64,000 nucleotides of DNA, taken from the sequence record OR699282.2, one strand, 5' to 3'. Source of the stretch: Escherichia phage BAU.Micro_ELP-22. This document shows, piece after piece, positions 3,767 through 59,500 of the stretch (its first letter is position 1; the number at the start of each line of letters is the position of its first letter). Made by a program: the position numbers and the translations under genes. The notes under the pieces are model-generated. The model searched no databases. It saw only the letters and a list, made by a program, of their open reading frames with translations, and was not told the origin of the DNA.

Positions 3767-6463
3767 ATGTCAAAGAAAATATATGGTGGCTTAGATGTCA
3801 CACATAATGTGACAGTTAATGGTAAAAGAACAATTCAAGGAATAAATGAACAAGTTTTTGATTCCAACGGTAACTTGGAATTAGATACTTATTCCAGAGA
3901 TGAAGTACTAGATATAGTAAGTATGATGCCAATCTCCCATTATGGTTCACAAAACTATCTACCTGCGGGTGTTTCTGGGGATTTCAATGGTGCATCAGAA
4001 AACCAGTCACAACGTAGAAATAAAATTTTATTAGAAAACGATGGTACACTAGTACTTTTACGTAGTGGGACAAACGGTAGTGTTGAGGGATTATTTTATT
4101 CATATTTGGCTAACGCATTATCAGTTGATGACATGAGCCGTACAATTAACACCAGTCGTCAATACAAGCCTGGGTTTTTTGGTTCAAATAGAGTTGCGAT
4201 TGGTTTATACAATACTGATCCAAATATTTTACTCGGTAGATATATTGATACTTCTAACAGTACTAATGGTTTGTTCATATCAATTACCAATGGTACATTA
4301 GATGATAAATTGCATACTGGTTTTTTCGTTAACCAAGCAGATATATCACCTGAAGGTGGTATTGAATATGCTATGATGGCAGAAGATGGTTCTATATATG
4401 TTTTTAACGTACTTAATGAAAATAACCAACTACAATTAGTTGTTGTTAAAGTTGTTTATAATATAAGCAATGGTACTTATACTGCAACTCGAATTACTGG
4501 ATGGACTACTAAAACATTTTATAACACAACTTATTCTGCACAAAATAATATGGTTATTACTAATCAGGTAACATCAACAAATATTGCTGATAAACCTTAT
4601 GTGTATGTTCCACAAAATCTACGTGGTATTGGGATTTACATGACATCAATTGATTTATATGTTGCACAGCAGCCAGGAACGCAGAATTTCCGCTTTAGAA
4701 TGAACGGGGACGCTTGGTTTACAATGGCAACATATAATACACGTCCACAGCATAGTTACAGTTTTGTGTTCAATATGAGTACTAAACAATGTACATTAGA
4801 TGCAGGTAACGATATTGGTTCATATCAAGCACCATTAGTTATAACTAATACTGGTTCGGCATTAGTTCCTACTGGTAACGTTTTAAATAACGATCCATTG
4901 TATAACCATGCAAATGCAAGAAACATTTATAGTTCATATTTTTATTTGAATTCTGGTGAAGCTTTTTGTACTGCATGTCCAAACTTAGCAGAACCATTAC
5001 TTATGCAAAAAGCTAAGTTTCCTATTCAAATAGTTTATAGTATGCTGAATGTCCGTGCTGTACTTTCTACTGACTTCAAAGGTGGTATAGTTCGCCCGTC
5101 TTTTGGTTCAGCGGTTGGTTCATTTATTAATGGTGTAGAATTACTACCAGATAACAGTACTAAACAATATTCACGTGCATCAGGTAGTGGTGGATTTAGA
5201 CCATCATATGCAGTTCATAAAAGTACTCCTAATTTTACATTTAAATCATTATCTTTAGGAACAATACAAGGTTATGAACCTACAGTTGAACGTGCTAATG
5301 TTGATGATAATGCAAATAATAGAATTTTTATTAGTAGTATTTCTGGGTCAACTGTCACAACCAATGGTGGTATTTTTATGGTTGGGCAACGTTATTCACA
5401 ATCATTATCCTATGATAAAAACTTAAATGGCACAGGAATTATAAGCGTTACACAATCAGTACTGGACAATTTTAGAAATACTGAATATGCCAAAGTTCTA
5501 AGTGATTGGAATTTATCAGCACAAGCATACCGTGATATGACACTATTTGTTCCACAACAAACAGACATTCCAGCTTTTGTTATGTTGAGTACAATTACTA
5601 ATGATTATAGAAACTATATTAGAATTGCTGAAGTTAATGTCAATACTAGAGTTGGTAATATTACATCTATTACATTTAAGCGTTTAGTACTTGAGAATAC
5701 GTATGGTGATAACTTTACACCAACTGGGAATGGTTCGATTGCATCTTCTTCTGTTGGTTTGACAATATATGATGGTGGTTCATTCTACTTCATTGGTGGT
5801 TCTGACCCATTATCACATCCAACAATAGGTAATACTGCAACTCATCAATTTAGAGCATATGTAACTAAATCAACTGCACAATTTACAAGTTTTATAATTA
5901 CTGGTTCTCATGCCAGTTATGAACAAGGAAGTCAACCAGCAGCATTACCTGGTATTGGTTTTGGAATTTTTGAACCAATTGATTACTCAAATAAAATGAC
6001 ATTCAAAAAATATGGAACAACGATTGCAGACTATAATAACTGGACTGCACAAGGTAGCCCAATTAACGTAGTATCCCAGGACGTTGCTCAAGGGTTTATT
6101 GTATATTTTACAGAGGAAACACCAGTTATTCTTTCAGGTAAGTCATTTTCACTACCAGTTTCAAATATTGATTTGAGAACTATTAAGTCTAATCCAGCAA
6201 ATACAACATTTTATGTATATGTTAAATTGGAACAAGGATTGGCAAACTATTACATAACTACTGATGTTATTTCTGAAACAGGAACAACTGCATATAATAT
6301 TTTTTGGATAGGTACAATTCAAACTAATGCAATTCAAATCGAAACAATTAATATACAAAAACGTTCCCGTTTAGATATATTTGGTGCTTCACTTGAATCA
6401 GCAGGTTCATCGTTCCCAGTTAGCTACGGTCTACCATCACAAACAGGAACCATAAACTGGTAA
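3767..6463 (+). CDS. large virion fibre/adhesin-like protein, paralog 1 (898 aa)
   Basis: Long Ser/Thr/Asn/Gly-rich ORF; shares an N-terminal motif (RDEVLDIVSMMPISHYG, LRSGTNGS) and a C-terminal module (VVSQDVAQGF...KSNPANTTFY...SSFPVS.G.PS.TGT..W) with 6475 and 7079. Confidence 0.6.
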   Translation: MSKKIYGGLDVTHNVTVNGKRTIQGINEQVFDSNGNLELDTYSRDEVLDIVSMMPISHYGSQNYLPAGVSGDFNGASENQSQRRNKILLENDGTLVLLRSGTNGSVEGLFYSYLANALSVDDMSRTINTSRQYKPGFFGSNRVAIGLYNTDPNILLGRYIDTSNSTNGLFISITNGTLDDKLHTGFFVNQADISPEGGIEYAMMAEDGSIYVFNVLNENNQLQLVVVKVVYNISNGTYTATRITGWTTKTFYNTTYSAQNNMVITNQVTSTNIADKPYVYVPQNLRGIGIYMTSIDLYVAQQPGTQNFRFRMNGDAWFTMATYNTRPQHSYSFVFNMSTKQCTLDAGNDIGSYQAPLVITNTGSALVPTGNVLNNDPLYNHANARNIYSSYFYLNSGEAFCTACPNLAEPLLMQKAKFPIQIVYSMLNVRAVLSTDFKGGIVRPSFGSAVGSFINGVELLPDNSTKQYSRASGSGGFRPSYAVHKSTPNFTFKSLSLGTIQGYEPTVERANVDDNANNRIFISSISGSTVTTNGGIFMVGQRYSQSLSYDKNLNGTGIISVTQSVLDNFRNTEYAKVLSDWNLSAQAYRDMTLFVPQQTDIPAFVMLSTITNDYRNYIRIAEVNVNTRVGNITSITFKRLVLENTYGDNFTPTGNGSIASSSVGLTIYDGGSFYFIGGSDPLSHPTIGNTATHQFRAYVTKSTAQFTSFIITGSHASYEQGSQPAALPGIGFGIFEPIDYSNKMTFKKYGTTIADYNNWTAQGSPINVVSQDVAQGFIVYFTEETPVILSGKSFSLPVSNIDLRTIKSNPANTTFYVYVKLEQGLANYYITTDVISETGTTAYNIFWIGTIQTNAIQIETINIQKRSRLDIFGASLESAGSSFPVSYGLPSQTGTINW

Positions 6464-6474
6464 AGGATTACATA

Positions 6475-7062
6475 ATGGCATATAAAATAAGAGCAGACCT
6501 TAAGGCAATGCAACAAGTTACAGTTCAGGGTAAAAGTACTGGTCTTGGTGTATTAGGTAATAATATGACTTATTACCCAACAAATTCAAATGGGGAATGT
6601 ACATTCCCCTCTATTACCAAAGATGAAGTTAACTTTATTGTCAATGGATTACCACTTACACAATACGGAGAATTGTATGATGACGCTAGTCTAAATATTA
6701 CTTCATCAGGCTATAGTCTTACATTTAACAGACAGATACCATCATTTATTGGTGGTTATCTTTATAAATTTCCAGCAGTTTCTATTTTTGCTTCAACTGT
6801 TTCATCTGGAACACAAACACAATACGTATATGCAACGTTAGTTCTCGGTGAACCAATTTATAAAATATCACCAACACAAATACAAGAATCTGAAATTATA
6901 ATGTTTATTGGTACTCTGACCGTTGGTACAAGTGGTATTACAAATATAAACATTAATAAAGTATCCAGATTTAGTACATATAGACCTAGTGTTACACAAA
7001 AAGGTTCTTCATTCCCAGTCAGTACTGGAAAACCATCAGAAACTGGTACAATTGGTTGGTAA
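6475..7062 (+). CDS. short paralog (195 aa) carrying the N- and C-terminal modules of the flanking fibre-like proteins
   Basis: TKDEVNFIVNGLPLTQYG near the N-terminus and ...RPSVTQKGSSFPVSTGKPSETGTIGW at the C-terminus. Confidence 0.5.
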   Translation: MAYKIRADLKAMQQVTVQGKSTGLGVLGNNMTYYPTNSNGECTFPSITKDEVNFIVNGLPLTQYGELYDDASLNITSSGYSLTFNRQIPSFIGGYLYKFPAVSIFASTVSSGTQTQYVYATLVLGEPIYKISPTQIQESEIIMFIGTLTVGTSGITNININKVSRFSTYRPSVTQKGSSFPVSTGKPSETGTIGW

Positions 7063-7078
7063 ATTAAGGAAAAGAAAG

Positions 7079-9808
7079 ATGTCATCAAAACGAATTATAG
7101 GAAGTGCCGAGATCCTTGGGAACTTGGCAATTGGACAAAGGTACGCTATGCGTACTTTTAATGGAACCTCACCGAATGCCAATACTGGAATTGTTCAATA
7201 TCCAATATATAAGCGTTCAGAAGTTCAAAGTATTTTAGATATGTTGCCTATATCACGTGTAGGAGAAATGGATTACTTACCATTAAACGTAAGTGGGTCG
7301 TATGAAGGTGCTACACCTATGTCAAGTGACCAAGTAGTTCAGCCAACAATTATTGAAGATGATGGAACCGCCGTTGTTCTGCGTAGCGGAACCAATGGTA
7401 GTACTAAAGGTTTTTATTATTCATTTATACGAGAAATCAGAAATATAACTATGATTTCACAAGAAAGTGTTATTTCAACCAATTCAATGTATAAACCTTC
7501 AATTATGAGTAGTACTGAAAATATTAAGTATTTTATTGGCTCTAATGGTTATGAGATGCTTGGATGTTTAAGTACTGAAGATAATTATATTTTTACTATA
7601 ACCAATGGCACATTTAACGAAATATCACATATTCATGCTAAAGTGCCAAGTACTTCTTTTGGTAATGATATGCCAATATATACACATATTGTTGGGACAA
7701 AGGTTTATATTTGGTGTAAAGATAAAAGTGTTTCTAATTTAGGATTAGCACTTTCAATTTATACAGTAGAGCTAAGTGATGTGAAAGCAAGCTCAATGGC
7801 ATCATTAACAAAAGTTACTGGGTTATCAGGTCAAACTGTTCGAAACACAAGTTATTCTGCATCTAATAACATAAGAGTGTTCGATAAATTATATAGTGTT
7901 GGTACTAGCTCGGATTCATTATTCGAAGTTACATCACCAGTATCACGTGTAGAATTTTCAGACTATACAGACTTTAACATTCAAGCCAACGTTAGTCCTG
8001 ATTTATCAAAAATACGTGTAACTTTATATCCAACACATCGAATGGTTACACCTTTGTATATTTCAACAGTTTATGGTACTGGAATCAGTTTTGTTTATAA
8101 TATAAACTCAAAATCTATGTCACTAGATGGTAGTGCTCGTGCACCTGCAACTGTTTCATATAATAATGGATTTCAAGTTTCTAACCCATTTGAAATTAAT
8201 ATGGTCAACTTCACAGGGACAACTGCTGCTGGTGTATTAGGAAACGCAGGTGGTTTATGTCAAACTAAAGATGGTTTGGTATTTGCATCTAAATTTAGAT
8301 GGAGTTCAACTGAATTTTATGGTCTACAACGATATAAGGTTAGTGGTACACCGTTTGATTCATGGGTTGCCAGTACTAGAACCGCAAGTAACGTTATAAA
8401 TGCAAACGTTTTACCAGTTTTTGGTAGTGCTGTTGGTGCAAACCTTTTAGGTGTACGTTTCATCGATAATAGAAAAATATTATTAGCATGTTCTGGTACG
8501 TATGATGATGTAACATATAATTATAATAATACTGTTTTTTCTGAAATAGGTTCACAACCAACATATCAATATAACTCAGTTCAAAATAATACTACATTAA
8601 ATGGTTTTGCACCACAATCTAATCGTAAACAAATAGGCGATGATTTTACATACACTGCTATGATTTCTCTTGTTGATACCGATGGTAGTGTTAGATGCTA
8701 TGGAACATCATTCATTGAAGGTGTATATAAAACAAGTGGTGGATTATTAAATCCAGATACTTTAGAATTTGATGAAACATATACAATAGAACCAACGGTA
8801 TTAGAATCATTAAAACAAGATATTTTTGCTAATATAGGAAACTCTGGCATTGTTGGTACACTATCTGGACAAATTGTATTATATTATGTACCTGATAATA
8901 CTTTTTCTAAATCCATCGCAGTAGTTTCAGCATATAATCTTAACAATAACCAAGGTTATGCAATCTATGCCGAAGTTGATGTTGTATTATCTGGAACTAA
9001 CATAACTTCAGCTACATTGGTGAGTACTAGATATGAAACACTGAGTTCTGTTACAGGAATTATTACTGAAGCATATATGAAACGTTGTACTGGTCTAACA
9101 GTTGCAAAATATTCAGGATTTGGTTACATTGGTGTTGATGCCGTTCATCAATTTTCACAACCAGGTAATGCACAATTTAAGATGATGATAGCTAAAACAG
9201 TAGATGGTGTCATAACATCAAATCGTTTTTTATCATCTAGTTACATCCAACTTGGTGCAGCATATCAACATGGTGTTATTCCTGGTGTTGGTTTTGGATA
9301 TTACAATTTTCAAGATTCTGACTATCAAACCAAATCTGTATTCAGCGTTTTTGGTACAACATCTGCTGAAATGGATGGTTTAATTAGTGGAAATGGTAGC
9401 GTTAAAGAAAAGATTGTGGTAGTATCACAAGACGTTGCACAAGGATTCTCAGTGTACTTTACACGTGAAGTTCCGGTGTTTTTAGGTGGAATTTTCGACA
9501 GACTACCTATACAAAGTGTTGATTTAAGTACTGTAAAAAGTAACCCAGCTAATACTACGTTCTATTTGTATATACAAATGAACAGGAATACTAAGAAAGC
9601 GTCATATGTTATTAGTACTGAAACAATTGATGAATCTTTAACTAGCACTTACATTGGTAAGATAGTTACTGGAACTTCAGGAATAACTTCAATTGATACA
9701 GAAAAAGTAACTCGTTTTTTGACATATCGTCCAAGTACAACGAAACGTGGTTCAGCGATACCTGCCAGTACTGGTGTACCATCAGGTCCAGGTACACGTT
9801 GGAAATAA
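7079..9808 (+). CDS. large virion fibre/adhesin-like protein, paralog 2 (about 909 aa)
   Basis: ORF track starts at 6989 overlapping the previous gene; start moved to Met 7079 with AGGA RBS. Shares KRSEVQSILDMLPISRVG, LRSGTNGS and the C-terminal VVVSQDVAQGF...KSNPANTTFY...TGVPSGPGTRWK module. Confidence 0.6.
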   Translation: MSSKRIIGSAEILGNLAIGQRYAMRTFNGTSPNANTGIVQYPIYKRSEVQSILDMLPISRVGEMDYLPLNVSGSYEGATPMSSDQVVQPTIIEDDGTAVVLRSGTNGSTKGFYYSFIREIRNITMISQESVISTNSMYKPSIMSSTENIKYFIGSNGYEMLGCLSTEDNYIFTITNGTFNEISHIHAKVPSTSFGNDMPIYTHIVGTKVYIWCKDKSVSNLGLALSIYTVELSDVKASSMASLTKVTGLSGQTVRNTSYSASNNIRVFDKLYSVGTSSDSLFEVTSPVSRVEFSDYTDFNIQANVSPDLSKIRVTLYPTHRMVTPLYISTVYGTGISFVYNINSKSMSLDGSARAPATVSYNNGFQVSNPFEINMVNFTGTTAAGVLGNAGGLCQTKDGLVFASKFRWSSTEFYGLQRYKVSGTPFDSWVASTRTASNVINANVLPVFGSAVGANLLGVRFIDNRKILLACSGTYDDVTYNYNNTVFSEIGSQPTYQYNSVQNNTTLNGFAPQSNRKQIGDDFTYTAMISLVDTDGSVRCYGTSFIEGVYKTSGGLLNPDTLEFDETYTIEPTVLESLKQDIFANIGNSGIVGTLSGQIVLYYVPDNTFSKSIAVVSAYNLNNNQGYAIYAEVDVVLSGTNITSATLVSTRYETLSSVTGIITEAYMKRCTGLTVAKYSGFGYIGVDAVHQFSQPGNAQFKMMIAKTVDGVITSNRFLSSSYIQLGAAYQHGVIPGVGFGYYNFQDSDYQTKSVFSVFGTTSAEMDGLISGNGSVKEKIVVVSQDVAQGFSVYFTREVPVFLGGIFDRLPIQSVDLSTVKSNPANTTFYLYIQMNRNTKKASYVISTETIDESLTSTYIGKIVTGTSGITSIDTEKVTRFLTYRPSTTKRGSAIPASTGVPSGPGTRWK

Positions 9809-13186: not shown

Positions 13187-13315
13187 ATGGCACAACAAAT
13201 TTTCACAGATATCCACACTACCGGAGTTATTAAATTTCAAAATAATTTTTCAGGTGCAACTGGTGTAGACATTAAAAATGATGGTTTTAACATTGTCAGT
13301 ACTCGGATCTATTGA
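13187..13315 (+). CDS. small ORF (42 aa) overlapping the start of the next gene
   Basis: Start chosen at Met with AGGA RBS (ORF track 13124); ends inside ORF 13278, which is in the +1 frame. Confidence 0.25.
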   Translation: MAQQIFTDIHTTGVIKFQNNFSGATGVDIKNDGFNIVSTRIY

Positions 13316-13814
13316 TGGTGAAGATAGTTCTCTTAGTGATTCTGTGATTGCATCATTCGGAACTAATAAAAACAGTTCTTTTATTATATCTGGATGGACT
13401 GGAATGACTGATTCTGAAAATAATGTTAAGATAAAAGCTAAAGCTACTAACGAGAATCATGAAACAGAATGGGTAACATTATATGATAGTGCAAGTAATA
13501 AGTTATATAATGTATTAAGTTCTAATAATATTTTAATTAATCCACTGTCGGGTAATGCTGTTTTTAATATTAATTTATCTGATAGAAATACTACTATTTC
13601 GATTGGTGCGGCTCCTACTGAAGTTTATTCAATTACCATCCTATTAACACAACAAACAGGTTCAAACCTAGTTAATTGGGGTTCTAATGTTAAATGGTCA
13701 TATAACAGACCAGTTGTTCTTTCTTATGAAATTGGTGAAAAAGATATTATTTCATTAGAAACATATGATAAAGGAGTTACATGGTACGGTGCATTAATTA
13801 GAGCAGGAGTATGA
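13278..13814 (+). CDS. hypothetical structural-type protein (178 aa)
   Basis: Ser/Asn/Thr-rich ORF directly upstream of the large 13816 gene; start uncertain (no RBS at 13278). Confidence 0.4.
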   Translation: MMVLTLSVLGSIDGEDSSLSDSVIASFGTNKNSSFIISGWTGMTDSENNVKIKAKATNENHETEWVTLYDSASNKLYNVLSSNNILINPLSGNAVFNINLSDRNTTISIGAAPTEVYSITILLTQQTGSNLVNWGSNVKWSYNRPVVLSYEIGEKDIISLETYDKGVTWYGALIRAGV

Positions 13815-13815
13815 T

Positions 13816-16605
13816 ATGTTAAACAATAATATTGATAATATTGTACAACTTCTTTATGGGCATCACAAATTTATTGAAAGAAATACTGGTGATACAATAG
13901 ACCCAACAGTACAACATTATGTGGTGAATAATCAGGGTGTTTTGGCGAACAACCGTCATTTTATTAACTATTCTGCAATGGAAGGTCAACCAAACGGTGA
14001 CGGGACAACAGAAGGTCAAAGTCTATTAATTTTAGGATACATTTATGCGTATCTGGCAACAAATGATCCAATGTTTTTAGATAAAGCCAAATGGTACTGG
14101 GATGCATATCATCAGTACTTTTATGCTGGACGTGAATTACCAGATCCACCTACACCACTACAATGTAACTGGATAGTTAATGCCAAAGAACCTATATTGG
14201 CTAACTGGCCTTTAGCTGATGATGGATGGCCTACACATGGTGGTTTCAAGGGTGTAGAATTTACATTTACAAATGGACAATGTAAAATACCACATGGTGC
14301 ACCTTATTATGGTCAGTTCTTGGATAAAGTAACATTTGCATTCAAAGGTGCTTTAGCATGGAACCAAATAAATGCGTCAGTAAAAGCATTATTACCAGAT
14401 GGTAGTGTTGATTGGGATACACCAGGTGAACAATATGATGTTGACTGGATTATCGATTTCATGGGTAGAAAAATCGACTGGGATGGTAATATTTTAGCAG
14501 AAGGTTTTGACGAATCTGAAAAAGGAACTGTTCAATTAAAGAATACAACAATTAATGGTGTATATAAATTAAATTTTGCAAATCGTCAACCAGTAGAATA
14601 TGGTGGTGTGATAATTCAACGAAATGAAATGCAACACAACCGCCCACTTCATGTTCCAATTGATTTGGAATTTGCGGATAACGCATCAGATGCAGAATTG
14701 TGGTTTAGTGATGCTTCTTATTTGTTATATAAAATAACAAAAGAAAGAAAACATTATTTGGGTTGGAAATGTTCACTACTAACGTGTTATGCTTATGGTG
14801 ATATTGACTCCAGAGATAAATTTTTCAGACAAAGTACAATTGTAACCACACCATTCACTGATGGTATTTCCTATGAATATTTTTATCCAAGTGATGCTAT
14901 TGCTAAGTTTGGTAGAAATTCTCTAGGATATATTACTATCAGGCAAGACCAAAGTGCACAAAGTACAATGGAACAACAAGCTATTTGGTTCAGGGTCAAT
15001 GCTGATTCTAAATTACTTGTAGACTATGGTGGTGTATGTGATGATGGTAAGCCGTTATCATTTAAACCAGTACTGGAATTGTCAAAAACAAAAAATGACC
15101 ATGATGTTGTTCGTTATCGTTGTGGCTTACCGGAAAGTAAAGACCAAAATATCACACATTCATTAACACCTTTAAGTGCATTTGTTAGAGAAAAGAAAGC
15201 AGATGGTTCCCCTTATATAATTGCTGATAGTAGAATTGTTGTTCCTTATGGTGCAGCTACGTCCGAAATGATATATAGTACTGATATATTAGTTACACGC
15301 CGCGATACCATTAATCAGTTAGTTTGTGGTGAAGATGATGGTGCTGTTATTGGATTTTGGCTATTAGCAACAAATAAGTCTGAAGTTAAATCTTTTACCT
15401 ATCGTTCATATGAAGATGATTACAATATAAGAATTGTAGATGATAATGGTTGGAGATGGTGGTGGATGATTCCTGCAACACACGGGGAATGGACTACAAT
15501 CACACTAAGTCCCGATACATTACGTTTATCTGGGTATCAGCCAAATCATCCAAGTTCTGACCCAAGACCAGATGCACCAGTTTATAGTGAACTAGAAGAT
15601 ATTACTATTTTACCTGATACAACCCCAGTAGATGGTGTTACTGCAATAATTGATTGGTATTGTATTAATGACATTCCAGAATTATACACGGATGCTGACG
15701 GTGATGACTATACTATGACATTTTCAATAACAATTGCAGGTGAATCACCATATACTGCACAGTTAGGGGATTGTGTAATCAAAGATTATTTGTTAAACTC
15801 ATTGCATTACACACCAGGAACAATACCATTTTCTAACATCACTGACCCGTATGCGAACCAGTATTCAGGATGGCGTGGTTTACCGTATCCAGGTTATCAA
15901 TATCCTGTGATATATTGTTTTAAAGACCAGCCAGTAGATAACACACGCTTAGGAAACATGTTAAGCTTTATGAAAGATTCCCAAACATGGTTTACTCAAC
16001 AATTCGGTACTGTTGGTCCGTGTGCACAAGCATATGTTTGGAACCGCTGGGATAACTTAAAATATGGTGAACCAGATACATTTACTATGCTACATTGGGG
16101 TGATCAAGCATGGAGTGGGTATGAACCACGTGCGTTCTTTGGGGCTGCCAGAGCATGGCAAGAACTCGCAGAGAGAGGAATTGAACCACCAGCAGATCTT
16201 GTTGAATTTTGTGAGAATTGGATTCACTTTTTAATTCAATTTCAAAAAGATAATGATGGTCGTTCACCAACAATCTTCAATAAAGATGGCACAGTTGAAG
16301 GTCCAGATTGGGACTTTACAGGTCATATGTGTGGGTTGTGGTTAGCTGGGGCTTGTGCTGCTGGATTGGCTGGATGTAAAATAGAAGGTCTAACAACACT
16401 CGCTGATAACTTAGTTCTCGAACTTCAAAAGAATTATGTTATTGTAAATCCAGGTTCACCAATGAATGGTTCATGGAGTCCAGCAGTTAGAGAAGGTACT
16501 GATAATGGTATGTTTTTTGGTTTCTGGGCAGGTGAGATTATGCGTGGATTGGGATTATACTCAATGTACCGCTTAAACACACCAAATCGTTTCCGTGATT
16601 TATAA
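13816..16605 (+). CDS. large W/Y-rich protein (929 aa), putative tail-associated glycan-degrading enzyme
   Basis: Aromatic-rich composition (WYWDAYHQYFYAG, WRWWWMIP, GLWLAGACAAGLAG) reminiscent of alpha/alpha-toroid glycoside hydrolases; by impression only. Confidence 0.3.
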   Translation: MLNNNIDNIVQLLYGHHKFIERNTGDTIDPTVQHYVVNNQGVLANNRHFINYSAMEGQPNGDGTTEGQSLLILGYIYAYLATNDPMFLDKAKWYWDAYHQYFYAGRELPDPPTPLQCNWIVNAKEPILANWPLADDGWPTHGGFKGVEFTFTNGQCKIPHGAPYYGQFLDKVTFAFKGALAWNQINASVKALLPDGSVDWDTPGEQYDVDWIIDFMGRKIDWDGNILAEGFDESEKGTVQLKNTTINGVYKLNFANRQPVEYGGVIIQRNEMQHNRPLHVPIDLEFADNASDAELWFSDASYLLYKITKERKHYLGWKCSLLTCYAYGDIDSRDKFFRQSTIVTTPFTDGISYEYFYPSDAIAKFGRNSLGYITIRQDQSAQSTMEQQAIWFRVNADSKLLVDYGGVCDDGKPLSFKPVLELSKTKNDHDVVRYRCGLPESKDQNITHSLTPLSAFVREKKADGSPYIIADSRIVVPYGAATSEMIYSTDILVTRRDTINQLVCGEDDGAVIGFWLLATNKSEVKSFTYRSYEDDYNIRIVDDNGWRWWWMIPATHGEWTTITLSPDTLRLSGYQPNHPSSDPRPDAPVYSELEDITILPDTTPVDGVTAIIDWYCINDIPELYTDADGDDYTMTFSITIAGESPYTAQLGDCVIKDYLLNSLHYTPGTIPFSNITDPYANQYSGWRGLPYPGYQYPVIYCFKDQPVDNTRLGNMLSFMKDSQTWFTQQFGTVGPCAQAYVWNRWDNLKYGEPDTFTMLHWGDQAWSGYEPRAFFGAARAWQELAERGIEPPADLVEFCENWIHFLIQFQKDNDGRSPTIFNKDGTVEGPDWDFTGHMCGLWLAGACAAGLAGCKIEGLTTLADNLVLELQKNYVIVNPGSPMNGSWSPAVREGTDNGMFFGFWAGEIMRGLGLYSMYRLNTPNRFRDL

Positions 16606-16606
16606 C

Positions 16607-16635
16607 TTGACATAGAAAAAGTAATTATGTATAAT
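16607..16635 (+). promoter_or_regulatory. consensus sigma70-type promoter (TTGACA-17-TATAAT)
   Basis: Exact -35 and -10 hexamers with 17-nt spacer immediately after the 13816 stop. Confidence 0.5.
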
Positions 16636-16636
16636 C

Positions 16637-16667
16637 AGAGAACTTCATATGGAGTTCTCTTTTTTTA
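16637..16667 (+). terminator. intrinsic terminator (agagaact-8 nt loop-agttctct + TTTTTTT)
   Basis: 8-bp perfect stem and T-run; overlaps the predicted transcript start of the promoter above. Confidence 0.5.
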
Positions 16668-16679
16668 TAAGGTGATAAA

Positions 16680-17099
16680 ATGTTAAATGAACGTATTAAA
16701 AATGCACTACATGTATTGAACCAAGAAGTAAATTCTATTGATAAAAGTACTGACCGTTATAAAGTAATGCATGAAATCAAACAAGAATTGGAATCTATTA
16801 ATAAGGGAGAATGGTGGTATCTTCAGCCCGAATATCAAACTCGTGAATTAAACGATGTTGAAAAAGAAATTGTCAAATTCATCACTACTCGTTACTGTGA
16901 TACATCAGAGAATGATGTATCAGCGAACTTCAATCTTACTAAATTGGAAGTCGAAGAAAAATTCAATTTTGATTGGCTTGATTGGCTTGAAATGGTCATG
17001 GAACTAGAAGAAAAATTCAATGTTGAAGTTGATGAAAAGTTCGAGAATAATGAAACTAAGCTGTATGAACTAGCAGAACATATTCAAAAAATGCTGTAA
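16680..17099 (+). CDS. hypothetical acidic protein (139 aa)
   Basis: ORF with GGTG RBS-like sequence upstream; no motif. Confidence 0.45.
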   Translation: MLNERIKNALHVLNQEVNSIDKSTDRYKVMHEIKQELESINKGEWWYLQPEYQTRELNDVEKEIVKFITTRYCDTSENDVSANFNLTKLEVEEKFNFDWLDWLEMVMELEEKFNVEVDEKFENNETKLYELAEHIQKML

Positions 17100-17152: not shown

Positions 17153-17527
17153 ATGAGTATGTTAGAAATAATTGTTTCAAAAATTCTGATTCCATTTTGG
17201 AAACCAATTTCTTTTGTATTATTGATTGGCGGTTCAGCTTATGCTGGTTGGGAAGCTAATACTTATTACAGTGGCTATCAACAAAGCATAGAGCAACAAA
17301 TAGCTAAAAAAGTTGATACCGCCTTGGATAAAATGCAACAAGAAAATGCAAAAAATTACCTTGAAACGAAAAAAATCATGGAAGATAATGCTAAAGTTAT
17401 TGAAACAAAGGTTCCTTTTATTGTAGAACGTGAAGTTTATAAGAATGTATGTTTAGATGAAGATGGTGTAAAAGTACTGAATGAACTAAAACAAAATTCT
17501 CAAGCTGCGAGGAATAAATTCAAATGA
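17153..17527 (+). CDS. i-spanin-like (inner-membrane spanin component)
   Basis: N-terminal TM helix (ILIPFWKPISFVLLIGGSAYAGW) followed by a charged coiled-coil-like region; 4-nt overlap with the lipoprotein gene. Confidence 0.5.
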   Translation: MSMLEIIVSKILIPFWKPISFVLLIGGSAYAGWEANTYYSGYQQSIEQQIAKKVDTALDKMQQENAKNYLETKKIMEDNAKVIETKVPFIVEREVYKNVCLDEDGVKVLNELKQNSQAARNKFK

Positions 17528-35016: not shown

Positions 35017-37680
35017 ATGGCAGGAGATCTACTCTCACCTGGCGTTTCCATTTCAGTAACTGATGAAAGTATGAGTACCGCTGCTGCTCCTGGCACTGTA
35101 CCACTATTTGTAATCGCTACTGCTGAAGACAAACTTGTCCCAGGAAGCAGTGCAATAGCTGCGGGAACTACTAAAGCAAACGCTGGAAAACTACAGCTTC
35201 TAACATCACAAAAAAGCTCACTTGATACCTATGGTACACCAATTTTTCAAATGAATAACGGTTCTGTTGTTCAAGGTGATGAACTAAACGAATATGGCCT
35301 ACATGCAGTATATTCTTATCTAGGCATTACTAACCGTGCATATGTAATTCGTGCTGATATCGATCTAGCACAACTAGCACCAAGTGCTGAAGCACCAACT
35401 GGCCCAGTATCCAATGGTACTTTGTGGTTTGATACCGCACAATCACAAGTAGAAGCGTATGTAGCGAAGAAAGATAGTCCAAGCAGTTTTTATGATTGGC
35501 AACTTAAGCCAGTAACTATTGTAAGTGCTGAAGAAGTTGAAGATGTAAGTCTAGTAGGTTTAAATGTTGATGATTTAGTTCTACGTTACAAACCAAGCAA
35601 TGGTCAGATGCTAATGTATAAACGTTCTGCTTCTGGGCTAGTGCAAATGGAAACTTATCTATCACCAATTAACAAAGTTCCAGTTGGCTCAACTGTAGAA
35701 AAAGGTAACATTTGGATTCGTGATGGTTACACCCAAAATGGTTCAAACTATTTTGGTACTCGTTTTGTTATTAAACGTTATGCATCCCTAACTCAAGTTT
35801 GGAATATTGTACCAGCATATACTGGTAATTCATTCCAAGAAATTGAAGCGAAAAGTGGTGTACTAAACAATAGTTATATCGCATCTCGTTTTGATGAAGA
35901 TAGTAAGAGTTTCTCTTTCTATATTCAAAGTGCAAAACTAACAACAATTAGTGCTCCTGCTTTGCCACTTGGTGAAACTATTATTGAACAAGCAGGTGCT
36001 GATAGTTATATGACTTTTGTTTATTTGAATAAATCAGTTAAAGTACTAGCAGTTCCACAAGGCGGTGTTATTAATACCCAAACTATCATCAATAATCTAA
36101 ATGCAAATGCTGAAATTATTAACGATGGTTTTAAATTTAAACGTGAAACTAATGGTGGTTTAGTTGTTTCCAATACAAAAGGTTACAGTTTCAAAATCAC
36201 ACAAAGTGGTGATGATATTTTTGCTGAATCTGAACTACAAAAACTAACAGTAGATAGTAACAACTACTCTCTAATTAACGTGAATAACTTCCGTGTTAGT
36301 TATTCAGTACCACGTAGTGTAGCAAAAGAAGGAACTCTCTGGTATGATTTCGGGAACTCCGATAATCTAACTGTAACTATGTATGTTGCTGATGTTGCTA
36401 ATGATGAATGGGATCTAGTACAAGAAGAAAACAAATATGTACAAGTTGATGAACCAGCGGCTGACCGTTTAATTTGGGTTTGTCCTTTGTCTCAAGGCAT
36501 TGATGGTTATGATTTCTATCGTAACGTTGATGGTGAATGGGTTAAACTTGACAGTACTGATCAAAGTACACTAAATGGTATGATTTTCCAAGACTTTAAT
36601 TTCCCAAGCCAAGTTCCTGCTGCGGCATTGTATCAAAATGGTATGCTTGCAGTTGACCTAGGTAACACTGAAGGTGTTGTTAAGAAAATGGTTAATGGTC
36701 AATGGGAAGTTGTTAGTGGTGTAAGTCTTGATGGTGCTGGCCTATTTGGTCGTGCTGCACAACGTCAACTAGTAGTTGAAGCACTAGCTGCTGTTATTAT
36801 TGGTAATGATGACATTCGTTCTGAATTTATTGATTTTAACCTAATTTGTGTACCTGGTTACGTTGAAACACTTGATGAATGTGTAACTTTAAACACTGAT
36901 CGTAAAGAAACTGCATTTATTGTTACTGACGTTCCAGCACGTTTGAATCCAACTGGAAACGGTAGTGCTGTACAACAATGGGCTACTAATGCTAACAATG
37001 CACCAAGCAACGGTTCAGTTGGTCGTACAACTGCTTATGATTATGCTGCTCAGTATATGGGTTGGTGTCTAAGTACTAACGTTGATGGTGAAGAAGTTGC
37101 AGTTCCTGGTAGTACTATTGCAATGCGTACATATGCATACAGTGATAGTGTTAGTTATGTATGGTATCCACCTGCTGGTACAACTCGTGGTGTTGTAACA
37201 AACGCTGCAAGTACTGGTTTTATCAACAGCGAAGGTGAATATCAACCAGTAGTATACAACCAAGGTCAACGTGACGTTATGTATACTAACAACATTAACC
37301 CAATTGCAATGCGTCCTAACCGTGGTTTGCTTGTTTATGGAGATAAAACTCTATCTGCTAATCAAACTTCTGCACTAAGTCGTGTTAACGTTGCTCGTTT
37401 AGTTGTTTATATTCGTCGTCAACTAGAAATTATTTCCGAACCATTCCTATTCCGTTTGAATACTCCAAGTACTCGTCAGGAATTTAGTGGTGTAGTTAAT
37501 AGCTTCTTGGCTGAAATTGTTCAACAACAGGGTCTTTATAACTTCGCAGTGGTTTGTGATGAAAGTAACAACACCGCAGAGCGTATTGACCGTAATGAAC
37601 TTTGGATGGATATTGCAATTCAACCAACTAAGAGTATTAACTTCATTTACGTACCAATCCGTATCGAGAAAACTCAATAA
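35017..37680 (+). CDS. contractile tail sheath protein (T4 gp18-like), 887 aa
   Basis: N-terminal LLSPG and C-terminal YGDKT...FAVVCDESNNTAERIDRNELW...IQPTKSINFIYV match the T4 gp18 terminal domains from memory; GGAGGA RBS. Confidence 0.85.
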   Translation: MAGDLLSPGVSISVTDESMSTAAAPGTVPLFVIATAEDKLVPGSSAIAAGTTKANAGKLQLLTSQKSSLDTYGTPIFQMNNGSVVQGDELNEYGLHAVYSYLGITNRAYVIRADIDLAQLAPSAEAPTGPVSNGTLWFDTAQSQVEAYVAKKDSPSSFYDWQLKPVTIVSAEEVEDVSLVGLNVDDLVLRYKPSNGQMLMYKRSASGLVQMETYLSPINKVPVGSTVEKGNIWIRDGYTQNGSNYFGTRFVIKRYASLTQVWNIVPAYTGNSFQEIEAKSGVLNNSYIASRFDEDSKSFSFYIQSAKLTTISAPALPLGETIIEQAGADSYMTFVYLNKSVKVLAVPQGGVINTQTIINNLNANAEIINDGFKFKRETNGGLVVSNTKGYSFKITQSGDDIFAESELQKLTVDSNNYSLINVNNFRVSYSVPRSVAKEGTLWYDFGNSDNLTVTMYVADVANDEWDLVQEENKYVQVDEPAADRLIWVCPLSQGIDGYDFYRNVDGEWVKLDSTDQSTLNGMIFQDFNFPSQVPAAALYQNGMLAVDLGNTEGVVKKMVNGQWEVVSGVSLDGAGLFGRAAQRQLVVEALAAVIIGNDDIRSEFIDFNLICVPGYVETLDECVTLNTDRKETAFIVTDVPARLNPTGNGSAVQQWATNANNAPSNGSVGRTTAYDYAAQYMGWCLSTNVDGEEVAVPGSTIAMRTYAYSDSVSYVWYPPAGTTRGVVTNAASTGFINSEGEYQPVVYNQGQRDVMYTNNINPIAMRPNRGLLVYGDKTLSANQTSALSRVNVARLVVYIRRQLEIISEPFLFRLNTPSTRQEFSGVVNSFLAEIVQQQGLYNFAVVCDESNNTAERIDRNELWMDIAIQPTKSINFIYVPIRIEKTQ

Positions 37681-39645: not shown

Positions 39646-41753
<2,108 letters not shown>

Positions 41754-56579: not shown

Positions 56580-59500
56580 TTAAGCTGTACGTTGTGCAAT
56601 AAACATATCTGCTACTGGACTCACACCGTCATAAATGACTTGGTAAATGGTCACACTACCAGCAGTTTTGTTTAGAGTTCCATCAACAACCGCATAAGTA
56701 CCGTCAGTAGTAAAGTTTCTATTACCTGTTGCATCTTGTTTTACATAAATGTATACTGAAGATGCTTTACCACCACCAATTAGACCAGTGATTGGTGCTA
56801 GAGTTGTATCTTGATCTAGAGTGATAAAGTATACGTTGCTAGTACCGTCTGGGGTCCAAGTACCAGTTGGTGCGATAACAGAAGAAGTTACTTGATTAGG
56901 AATAACATCATATTTTTTAGTAGTTACTGTTGTAGTAGTTAGGTCAGCATTAGTAGTTGTTAATTGACCAGTTACAGTTACATCTTTATCAAATACCGCA
57001 TTTTCTTTGAAAGAAGATGTTGCATTGACAGTTAATGTATCAGCAGCAGCGTCACCTAAAACAACACTACCATTTGCAGTCATTAAACCAGTAACAGTTA
57101 AAGTACCACCGATGGTTGCTGCTCCAGTAACAGATGCACTAGCAAGTGTTGCTGCACCAGAAGTAGTAATGGTAGTTACTGAAGTTGCTGCTAGGGTTGC
57201 AGTACCTGTTGCAGAAATATCACCACCAACAGTTAGGTTACCAGAAGTAATTCCAACGGTTCCAGTAATGTTAGCACCACTTGACATTGTTACTGCACCA
57301 CCAAATGAACCAGTAGTAGTTACTTCAAGGGTGTTCCCTTTTAGTAGACCAGTTGCAGTAATACTTGTACCTGCGGTAATGCTAGTACCAGCAGCAACAC
57401 TGTTGGTTGCAGTTAATGATTTAACAGCTACATCAGAGTTTGCTTGGTTTAGTGTTGCGTTTAGAAGACCAGTTACTGTAAAGTTACCGTTGTTAACTAC
57501 GTTACCATTGATTGTTAAGTTGTTGTTTTGTGAACCAACATCACCAATAGTTGCTGATTTGGAAATCAACTCTGCACCAGAAGTAATGTTACCCGCTGCA
57601 CTAATAGTGTCAGCCGCAACAACTGCATAAGGTTCAATTGTTTGACCACTAACGTCAATATCAGCGTTGATACCACCATCTACACGCAAGGAGCCTGCAA
57701 TGTAAGTATTAGGGAAAATCTGAACTGTCTCTGGTTGATCACCAATTTTAGTACCAATAATAACATCAGAACCAGTTTTAACTGCACCAGAGGTTGTTAG
57801 AGAACCTAAAGTTGTAGCACCAGTTACGCCTAATGTTCCACCAATTGTTGCGTTATTGGTAACTGCTAATGCAGCACCTTCACCATTAAGAGCGATTGAT
57901 GGAGCAGATACTGCACCAGTTACGCCTAATGTTCCACCAATTGTTGCGTTGCCATCTGAATGTAGAGTTGTAGCTACAGAAAGACTGTTAGCAACTACAT
58001 CAGTACTAGCTAAATCCAATGCACCTGGGGTTAATGTACCAGTAATGTTAACATTATTACCAAAGGTTGCTGCACCAGTCACATCTAGTGTAGTACTAAA
58101 TGTACCAGAGGTTGCAGAGATTGCACCTGAATCTAGTGATCCAACAGTTGCTTTACCAGTTACACCTAAAGTTCCACCAACAGTTCCATTTGTGGTTACA
58201 TCCAATGTACCAGTACTTAGTTCTTGTGCGGTTACCTTACCGGATGCAGTAACAGTTGAAGTGGAAACGCCACCAGTTAGAGTACTAGCACCAGTAACAC
58301 TTAATGTGGTTGCAGCAGTTACGCTATTTACGCTAAGATCAGCACCGGATAAGTCCAAACCACCTTCAGGAACAAATACACCCTTAACAGTTAGTTTTTG
58401 TACTGTACTATCACCTGTTACATCCAAGGTAGAAGCAGTTAAACCACCATTCATACTTGCTGCACCAGTAACACCTAGTGTAGTGGTTACAGTAGCACTA
58501 TTAAGTGTTGAACTACCAGAAATATTAGCACTAGGAGCAGTAATAGTTCCAGAATCAACTTGTATACCACCTGCAACAACCTGAATTCCACCAGCATTAA
58601 CTGTTAGTTTACCAGCAGTATTCAATGTATTTGAAACTGTTGTTGCACCAGTTAAAGTTGTAGTACCAGTTACACCTAAGTTACCAGAAATAGATGGACT
58701 ACCTGTAATATTACCAGTAGTTAGTATCAAATCAGTACCTACGGTAGTGGAGCCAGTACTTTCTAGTGTTACACCAACGATGTTTGCAGAACTTAGGTTA
58801 ATAGTACCATCAACAGTTAAGTTACCTTGAACGGTTGCATCACCTAGAGAAGTTAATGTCTTCACAGACACATCAGTTGTGCTAAGATCAATAACACCCG
58901 CAGTTAGTGTTCCAGATACTGCTAAATTACCAGTAATCGCGGTATTTTTAGTAATGGATACATTTTCTGCCGCTGAAGTAATAGAACCAACAGTAAGTAC
59001 ACCACCAACAGTTGCGTTATTAGTTACATTTAGAGCAGTTCCAACACCAGATAGTGTTGCTGACCCACCAGTAATTGCACCTGAGATTGAAGCTGTTGCT
59101 GCTGAAACATCACCAGAAACTACTGCATTTGTTGCATTTAGAGCAGACACTGTTACTTCAGTACTTTGAACTTTAGGTAGAACGTTGATACCTTCTGCAC
59201 TACTAACTGTAATAATACCAGTACTTGTTATAGATTTAACAGATACATCAGCACCACTTAAATCAACTGTACCAGAAACAACAAGATCTCCACCAATATT
59301 TGCTCCAGCGGTAGTAGTAATGGATTTTGCACTTACATCAGTTGTGCTCAAATCAATTGCACCTGGTGTTACTGTACCAGAAACTGTTAGGTCACCAGTA
59401 ATAGATGTATTATTGGAAATAGATACACCATCAACGTTACTAATTGTTGGGGTTTCTACAGAAACTGCTTTAACTTTACCTGAAGAAGTTACGTCAGCTA

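Follow-up and report, generated by a model that had tools for sequence, protein, structure and literature searches.

The current work concerns a gene for a protein of 929 amino acids (aa) in a 64,000-nucleotide stretch of DNA from Escherichia phage BAU.Micro_ELP-22 (sequence record OR699282.2); this whole stretch is called the window below. The protein is best read as a virion component of the tail periphery that resembles glycoside hydrolases (GH) and belongs to an uncurated family with the six-hairpin (alpha/alpha)6 fold. A probability of about 0.55 is given to this reading, together with the mechanism proposed below. The gene, the family, the location in the virion and even the label 'glycosidase' are already present in the literature or in databases. 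New here are a confident fold assignment, that of a predicted split six-hairpin barrel with inserts like carbohydrate-binding modules (CBM); two candidate catalytic residues that appear to hold throughout the superfamily and lie in GH8-like motifs; the placement of the protein, by sequence comparison, outside GH8 and every Pfam GH family; and a proposed picture of one module carried on different anchors.

The 929-aa protein and its orthologues

A preliminary description of this DNA had called the protein aromatic-rich, and its composition bears this out. The open reading frame (ORF) was found as described (Table 1). Its product contains 31 Trp (3.34%; in 17 other long ORFs of the window, Trp makes up 0.05-2.8%), and Trp, Tyr and Phe together reach 13.6%, the highest value among the same ORFs; the richness is real and mainly due to Trp. 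The protein is acidic, with 118 Asp and Glu against 73 Lys and Arg. The motif quoted in that description, GLWLAGACAAGLAG, is present at residues 840-853, within the predicted helix 836-851 (GLWLAG...), a barrel helix rich in small residues.

The DNA of the gene is 100% identical to that of Escherichia phage JP4 and about 99% identical to that of 121Q, PBECO4, phAPEC6 and others. These phages (Asteriusvirus) are jumbo myoviruses of 320-380 kb, and judged by sequence the source of the window is itself a jumbo coliphage of this group (121Q/PBECO4/JP4 type). In 121Q the counterpart is gp509, annotated 'tail protein', and the genes before it are gp508 ('tail fiber protein') and gp507, of 42 aa. PHROG 2871 ('tail protein') matches residues 2-926 with E=0 and 1512 bits, and the identity to phi92 gp141 is 57% over 927 residues. 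These comparisons identify the protein as the orthologue of phi92 gp141, PVP-SE1 gp049 and rV5 gp42. The likeness to these three includes full-length orthology, a small partner encoded upstream (phi92 gp140, rV5 gp43; called the adaptor below) and presence in the virion. The loci differ, however: in 121Q-type phages the pair is detached from the baseplate and tailspike cluster and stands among genes of nucleotide metabolism and lysis, and the partner gene is split by one extra base, unlike that of the phi92 type.

Homologues were found by tblastn in 530 phage records, 519 of which cover at least 80% of the query. They occur in Vequintavirinae and in phages like phi92 and PVP-SE1 (31-57% identity), in phiEa21-4-like phages of Erwinia, in Salmonella phages of Rosemountvirus size, in SPN3US-like jumbo phages, and in phages of Vibrio, Aeromonas, Klebsiella and Cronobacter. 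Prophage copies in Enterobacter, E. coli, Pseudomonas, Shewanella, Spongiibacter and Gluconobacter were added by a protein search. Between phages of different host genera, identity within the family is 45-57%. A phmmer search over 1.84 billion representatives reached only 233 clusters at E<=1e-3, so the family is real but modest in size; its most distant relatives match mainly the C-terminal half of the protein (residues 661-929). The counterpart in isolate JNE01 is annotated 'tail formation protein GpI'. No counterpart was found in the paper on the baseplate of Bas63 (Felixounavirus).

Presence in the virion is known from published work on orthologues. In purified virions of phAPEC6, gp314c (99% DNA identity) was detected with 8 peptides and 13% coverage (PMC7247149), and both rV5 gp42 and rV5 gp43 belong to the rV5 virion proteome (PMC3606486). 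The ORF is therefore a true gene, being nearly identical in JP4, 121Q and PBECO4, represented by homologues in the phage records counted above, and detected as orthologues in virions. In a review that cites Schwarzer et al. 2012, the entry for phi92 gp141 is 'glycosidase' (PMC5380687). The JP4 paper contains nothing specific on this gene.

Predicted fold and domain layout

An AlphaFold2 model, run with an alignment of 77 homologues, reached a predicted local distance difference test score (pLDDT) of 91.2 and a predicted template modelling score (pTM) of 0.86. Its long helices stand in hairpin pairs (6-22, 65-82/85-102, 291-308/311-328) and resume at 709-730, 770-787/793-812, 836-851/859-872 and 904-919. 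Two stretches, at about 120-274 and about 350-657, are all-beta. The helices form a barrel of about 12 members that is superposable on known six-hairpin proteins, and the structure-search matches to the barrel include GH88 enzymes, AGE-type epimerases, terpene cyclases and GH15. With the beta parts, Foldseek retrieved accessory domains of EngBF (GH101), tandem CBM22, neuropilin b1b2 and CBM11. Taken together, the paired helices, the beta stretches and the structure matches point to an (alpha/alpha)6 six-hairpin barrel that is put together from three segments and interrupted by CBM-like beta-sandwiches. In the CBM-like region the aromatic cluster W546-R-W-W-W550 follows the invariant D542, and PHROG 23426 ('tail protein') matches residues 478-622.

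Neither of two PDB searches (Foldseek PDB copy to April 2026) gave a full-length structural match, and thus no solved structure of the family was found. The tail protein VP4 (7xdi_F) of SSV19, a spindle-shaped archaeal virus, has 10% sequence identity to the 929-aa protein. A phmmer search against PDB sequences returned only the Hia adhesin (E 0.7), which was set aside as a chance match.

The preliminary description had favoured an alpha/alpha-toroid hydrolase or lyase over a beta-helix, and had proposed structure prediction as a check. The check came out in favour of a glycosidase-type six-hairpin fold, and no right-handed parallel beta-helix domain of the trimeric tailspike kind was seen. 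The lyase half of the proposal fared worse: the 60 barrel structure matches listed gave no sign of similarity to the toroids of PL5-, PL8-, PL15- or PL21-type polysaccharide lyases (PL), and no polysaccharide lyase stood among them. An enzyme of other chemistry might nevertheless be built on the same scaffold, be it a lyase, an epimerase or isomerase, or an unsaturated-uronide hydrolase (GH88/GH105-like). The matches to GH88 and to AGE-type epimerases are of such kinds, and the lyases are missing from the list; this explanation is regarded as very unlikely.

Conservation and a candidate active site

Among the 77 homologues, the invariant residues cluster in long loops that precede alternate helices. 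Before helix 65-82, N38, R47, H48, D62 and TTEGQ are invariant or nearly so. Invariant residues also stand before helix 291-308 (H274/N275/R276/P277, N289, D292, E294, W296), before helix 770-787 (W742/R744/D746/Y750, W766/G768/Y769/R772) and before helix 904-919 (M883/G885/W887), and conserved positions are concentrated in the loop before helix 836-851 as well. The pattern appears to be that of a pocket. E66 and Q68 are each present in 76 of the 77 close homologues, and in the model E66 and D292 occupy the N-termini of helices 65-82 and 291-308.

A wider set of 44 sequences, reaching down to 21% identity, is more selective. The only polar barrel residues conserved there at 90% or more are E66, Q68, D292 and, in the C-terminal barrel segment, Y665, Q695 and Q723; R367 and D542, both in the beta-sandwich region, reach the same level. 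Relatives that phmmer matched in the C-terminal half only still keep [ST]-E-x-Q near residues 45-75. A compact relative of 447 aa (P0367), which appears to consist of the barrel without beta-sandwich insertion A, has SESQ at 55 and AGDSLHWF at 150.

These motifs recall GH8. In GH8 enzymes the catalytic Glu is found in 'SEGQ', and 'A-[ST]-D-[AG]-D' is a signature of the family. E. coli BcsZ (GH8) has TTSEGQSYG with E55, which we take to be its catalytic acid, SASDGDVWMAW with D116, and SSYDAIRVY with D243. The 929-aa protein has TTEGQSLL (E66) and NASDAELWF (D292) as counterparts, so that the [ST]-E-G-Q catalytic-acid motif of GH8 is present, in TTEGQS at 64-69. Both motif patterns together were met in 0 of 200,000 shuffles, a figure that applies to motifs picked post hoc. 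When the barrel-only family profile was compared with a BcsZ profile low in diversity (orthologues of at least 60% identity only), hhalign aligned exactly the TTEGQS and ASDAE motifs, with a probability of 1.3% and E 0.04. A comparison of the full alignment with the single BcsZ sequence was uninformative owing to the insertions.

Several results weigh against a hydrolase of this kind. The hhalign values give homology to GH8 no statistical support. The longer GH8 signature, A-[ST]-D-[AG]-D-x2-[IM]-A-x-[SA]-[LIVM]-[LIVMG]-x-A-x3-[FW], is matched by BcsZ at 114-132, and the 929-aa protein, with ASDAELWFSDASYLLYKIT, fails it at several positions. For the base Asp of GH8a enzymes (BcsZ D243, in Y-D-A-x-R), the candidate equivalent in the family is Q/E770 (Y769-(Q/E)770-P-R772) or, according to hhalign, G776, and no conserved Asp is present. 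Some distant members lack E294 and D746. Pfam, whose GH models are a partial proxy for the CAZy families, gave no match for the full protein, for a barrel-only construct (E<=10) or, at threshold, for the 44 members, and no NCBIfam family was matched by the protein. Epimerases, isomerases and terpene cyclases, too, are built on the six-hairpin fold. The AlphaFold2 model of the adaptor, made from a 6-sequence alignment, was unusable (pLDDT 42), and only the strict adjacency of the two genes and their apparent translational coupling suggest that adaptor and enzyme are in contact. In a 2026 cryo-EM study of phi92, gp141 is neither mentioned nor placed, and fibre II and the arm of fibre I are left unassigned (PMC13450770). 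No biochemical work on any family member was met in the literature searched.

Membership in GH8 itself was rejected: PF01270 gave no match, the hhalign result is unsupported, and the signature and the base Asp have no counterpart. The GH8 enzymes BcsZ, C. thermocellum CelA (1cem) and CPF_2247 (3ren) are without the approximately 460 residues of beta-sandwich insertions that interrupt the phage barrel, and GH8 enzymes are secreted or periplasmic, whereas the 929-aa protein is virion-borne. The alpha-1,6-mannanases of GH76 were set aside as well. They were the only PDB structures reached by the hidden Markov model of the family, through the hairpin repeat 'Y-x-AT-x-D-x-x-YL-x-x-A' and not through catalytic residues; PF03663 (GH76) matched 2 of the 44 members below the Pfam threshold (best E 0.0049), and this repeat is a generic one. 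Pfam found no GH domain in the distant and compact relatives, and PADLOC reported nothing for the 929-aa protein. The description that suits the protein best is that of an uncurated family in the six-hairpin clan; the protein plausibly works like an inverting GH8-type hydrolase with a relocated base and yet is not a member of GH8.

The same data may be read without catalysis. In that case the protein would be a lectin-like receptor-binding protein, whose pocket and CBM-like domains bind a conserved surface glycan and whose Glu and Asp serve binding. The incomplete GH8 catalytic set, with no conserved Asp at the base position, the failure to match any curated GH family, the many Trp and CBM-like domains, and the annotators' names (tail fibre or tail protein) all agree with such a role. 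However, an acid/acid pair kept at helix N-termini down to 21% identity is more typical of catalysis, and known phage receptor-binding proteins vary strongly between hosts, whereas this protein keeps its identity across genera. We consider this alternative unlikely, though it has a real share of the probability.

The adaptor gene and the anchoring of the module

The adaptor matches PHROG 32568 ('tail fiber protein') at E=8.5e-120. It occurs in 507 phage records, whereas the large protein occurs in 530. Of its sequence, the last 100 aa or so are conserved (38% identity to phi92 gp140 over the C-terminal 108 aa), and its gene always lies immediately before the large one; the adjacency is also seen in phi92, PVP-SE1 and rV5. 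In Vequintavirinae and phi92 the pair stands between spike and wedge genes, beside the tailspikes, a position that speaks for a tail module. The stop codon of the adaptor (TGA, 13812-13814) is separated from the ATG of the 929-aa ORF by one base, a spacing that suggests translational coupling. For rV5 gp43, the N-terminus is reported to be similar to that by which the P22 tailspike binds the particle (PMC3606486).

Elsewhere the large protein is attached in other ways. In an Enterobacter/E. coli prophage with a siphovirus-type (lambda-J) tail-tip gene, the C-terminal domain of the adaptor ends a 560-aa protein that is encoded directly upstream of the homologue. Some homologues dispense with the partner. 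In a P2-like prophage the homologue is fused to P2 gpI (TIGR01634, E 3e-59), and other fusions involve a Phage Tail Collar domain, non-contractile-tail-sheath N-terminal and TIM-barrel domains, or RCC1 repeats. In BFVD this architecture recurs in proteins named 'tail fiber', from a Klebsiella phage, an Alteromonas phage (vB_AmeP) and others. A BLAST search of the collected relatives with the adaptor, for fusions of adaptor and enzyme, gave no convincing case; the sole match was a 293-aa fragment (P0292). The occurrence of one barrel and CBM unit on such varied anchors suggests a portable functional module, which favours an intrinsic role, enzymatic or binding, over a scaffold role specific to one lineage.

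Such a scaffold role has its own arguments. The protein might serve at the baseplate periphery mainly as a structural adaptor or branching hub carrying other tailspikes; it could then be, for instance, the proximal arm of phi92 fibre I or else fibre II, and the glycosidase fold would be a relic. The two phi92 structures named above are unassigned; in phi92, PVP-SE1 and rV5 the gene stands directly before tailspike or fibre genes. The fusion to the wedge protein gpI and the annotation of the JNE01 counterpart agree with a hub as well. Against this, the anchors that accompany the module are quite unlike one another: it is present in myovirus genomes, in the prophage with the lambda-J type of tail tip and, more distantly (13% identity), in the 'long tail fiber' protein of the Alteromonas phage, whose name vB_AmeP denotes a podovirus. 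Moreover, 121Q-type phages keep the gene away from other fibre genes, a scaffold does not explain the pocket-type conservation, and it is the small adaptor, not the 929-aa protein, that the N-terminus of the PVP-SE1 tailspike resembles. A hub is therefore held to be decidedly unlikely.

Proposed mechanism and target glycan

Under the preferred reading, that of a virion-borne hydrolase, the 12-helix barrel would be formed from the segments 1-118, 269-345 and 661-929, and the putative active site would lie on the face of the long conserved loops that precede alternate helices. Glu66 would act as general acid, and Asp292 would hold or distort the sugar in subsite -1, as in GH8; candidates for the general base are the invariant Asp746, Glu294, Glu907 and Asp62. 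The three inserted beta-sandwich domains, with their exposed Trp clusters, may bind polysaccharide. The protein would be made by translational coupling with the adaptor, the variable N-terminus of which would dock on the virion while its conserved C-terminal domain holds the enzyme. During adsorption the enzyme may then attach to a glycan of the surface or matrix and cut it, which would let the baseplate reach the outer membrane.

Classical tailspike depolymerases, such as P22 gp9, the K1F endosialidase and phi92 gp143/gp150, are likewise attached to the virion at the tail periphery, directed at carbohydrate, and provided with a modular N-terminal anchor. Unlike them, the 929-aa protein has neither beta-helix nor beta-propeller, its catalytic-type domain is an alpha/alpha toroid, and its anchor would be a separate polypeptide. 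Classical depolymerases are serotype-specific and hypervariable; in the family described here, the putative active-site residues are constant and the sequence varies little from host to host. Such conservation, in phages of many Gram-negative genera, makes a conserved glycan the more likely target and a serotype-specific capsule or O-antigen the less likely one. An envelope or matrix glycan of the conserved sort, such as enterobacterial common antigen (ECA), the core of lipopolysaccharide (LPS), cellulose, poly-N-acetylglucosamine (PNAG) and the like, is probably the better guess. This guess agrees with the view of the BASEL authors that a large part of the fibre locus of Vequintavirinae shows conservation and is probably directed at conserved glycans (PMC8594841).

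A candidate frameshift in the adaptor gene

Intact adaptor homologues are 207-209 aa long and start with MAKQFFTDIQTTGVIQFKNN...FNILTTGEIEG. In the window this N-terminus lies in another frame, with its ATG at 13187, the sequence MAQQIFTDIHTTGVIKFQNNFSGATGVDIKNDGFNIVSTRIY and a stop at 13313-13315, and the rest of the adaptor is in the frame of ORF 13278..13814. If ACT (13301-13303) is read, C13304 skipped and translation continued with GGA, a 208-aa protein results which is colinear with the intact homologues. The same extra base and the identical 9-mer ACTCGGATC are found in JNE01 (about 80% DNA identity) and in a metagenomic sequence (L010, adaptor 71% identical); a third relative of the same synteny is without the extra base. 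In the two diverged lineages the site reads ACT-CGG-ATC-nAT-TGA.

The CGG codon at this site is rare in the extreme: in frame it occurs in 0 of 12,879 codons (409 of them Arg codons) of 27 ORFs in the window, and UGA stands three codons after it. A sequencing error was considered as the cause of the split and is unlikely, since the split is present in three independent sequences (the window, JNE01 and L010) from two diverged lineages, and since the 42-aa ORF has an annotation of its own in 121Q and phAPEC6. The most economical candidate to explain the split adaptor is a programmed +1 frameshift on a 'hungry' CGG. The alternative is an adaptor of two pieces; the 42-aa product of the first ORF (phAPEC6 gp315c) was detected in virions with 69% coverage (PMC7247149). 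The tryptic peptide expected across the two frames of a +1-shifted adaptor is NDGFNIVSTGSIDGEDSSLSDSVIASFGTNK.

Genomic surroundings

The genes around the 929-aa ORF encode NrdD/NrdG, a nucleotidyltransferase, a protein like acyl carrier protein (ACP), an Rz-like spanin and an HNH endonuclease, and the only tail-related neighbour is the adaptor gene. The preliminary description had placed the gene in the structural region. This is not what the window contains: the neighbours are genes of nucleotide metabolism and lysis, and the genes for tail sheath and tail tube start about 18 kb further downstream. Table 1 lists the features of the locus.

Table 1. Positions of the features discussed (window positions unless a sequence handle precedes them)
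Feature	Position	Strand	Basis or remark
Adaptor gene ('tail fiber', phi92 gp140 / rV5 gp43 family), two frames	13187-13303 (N-terminal 39 aa), then 13305-13814	+	PHROG 32568
Candidate +1 frameshift site, ACT CGG ATC TAT TGA	13301..13315	+	Comparison with intact homologues
GGAG Shine-Dalgarno of the 929-aa ORF	13805-13808	+	Read from sequence
929-aa ORF	13816..16605	+	ATG start, ORF listing; PHROG 2871 orthologue, virion protein by orthology
Residues 1-118: first three predicted barrel helices (6-22, 65-82, 85-102), TTEGQS motif	13816..14169	+	AlphaFold2
Putative catalytic acid Glu66, codon	14011-14013	+	TTEGQS motif, residues 64-69
Residues about 119-268: predicted beta-sandwich insertion A, between barrel helices 3 and 4	14170..14619	+	AlphaFold2
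Residues about 269-345: HNRP loop, predicted barrel helices 291-308 and 311-328, NASDAELWF motif	14620..14850	+	AlphaFold2, conservation
Invariant Asp292, codon	14689-14691	+	ASDAE/NASDAELWF motif
Residues about 346-660: two predicted CBM-like beta-sandwich domains	14851..15795	+	AlphaFold2, Foldseek
Residues 661-929: conserved loop PFSN...PYPGYQYP and remaining predicted barrel helices	15796..16602	+	AlphaFold2, conservation
Sigma-70 consensus TTGACA-17-TATAAT, 12/12	16607-16635	+	Consensus scan
10-bp hairpin and run of seven T	16637-16660 plus T7 (region to 16670)	+	Starts two bases past the sigma-70 consensus
Tail sheath gene	35017-37680		At least 18 kb downstream of the 929-aa gene
Tail tube gene	39646-40740		Downstream of the 929-aa gene
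Large fibre gene	56580-62105	-	Downstream of the 929-aa gene
Adaptor junction region in relatives	L010:3925-4085; L012:255-415; L011:4001-4160
Recombined barrel module, examples	L006:8001-11294; L007:8319-12823			Also proteins P0263, P0371, P0244

Between the 929-aa gene and the ACP-like gene, a promoter-like element and a terminator-like one lie almost on top of each other. The region 16607-16670 is likely the end of the transcription unit of adaptor and enzyme and the start of the next. The ACP-like gene (16680-17099, plus strand) matches PHROG 18343 and, more weakly, ACP PHROGs, and the Rz-like spanin gene follows at 17153-17527 (plus strand); directly downstream of a pair of virion-protein genes, these two are odd surroundings.

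Some other ORFs of the window may be recorded here. Those at 3767-6463 and 6989-9808 (plus strand; 898 and 939 aa) are large paralogues, which both match PHROG 3573 (function unknown) with E of about 1e-270 and have no match in PADLOC. The mass spectrometry of phAPEC6 virions includes a hypothetical protein of 98.6 kDa, gp323c, that may correspond to one of them. The 1841-aa product of the large fibre gene on the minus strand has very few aromatics (Trp 0.05%; Trp, Tyr and Phe together 2.9%). Its matches to PHROG 4549 ('tail fiber protein') fall into 8 separate stretches, a pattern suggestive of internal repeats, and it may form one of the appendages, fibrous or 'hairy', that are described for phAPEC6.

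Significance

A more far-reaching hypothesis, doubtful though quite possible, is that the phi92 gp141 family forms a new GH family, as yet unclassified in CAZy, with a GH8-like pair of Glu66 and Asp292 and a relocated base. It would be carried on the virions of myo-, sipho- and podophages by interchangeable anchors and would cut a conserved glycan of Gram-negative envelopes or of biofilm matrices (ECA, cellulose, PNAG or LPS core, for instance); in 121Q-type phages the adaptor would be made through a +1 frameshift at ACU-CGG-A. To our knowledge, the list of programmed +1 frameshifts in phages is short, and the adaptor, if the frameshift is true, adds one case to it.

The assignment of a fold and of two candidate catalytic residues makes the enzymatic reading directly testable. 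Vequintavirinae, phi92-like phages, Asteriusvirus and other broad-host-range myoviruses are in use for phage therapy and biocontrol. Conservation of a virion enzyme from one host genus to the next would be a pointer to a glycan barrier or receptor that is itself conserved, and the 929-aa protein could be a broadly active enzyme against biofilms or envelopes, unlike the serotype-specific depolymerases.

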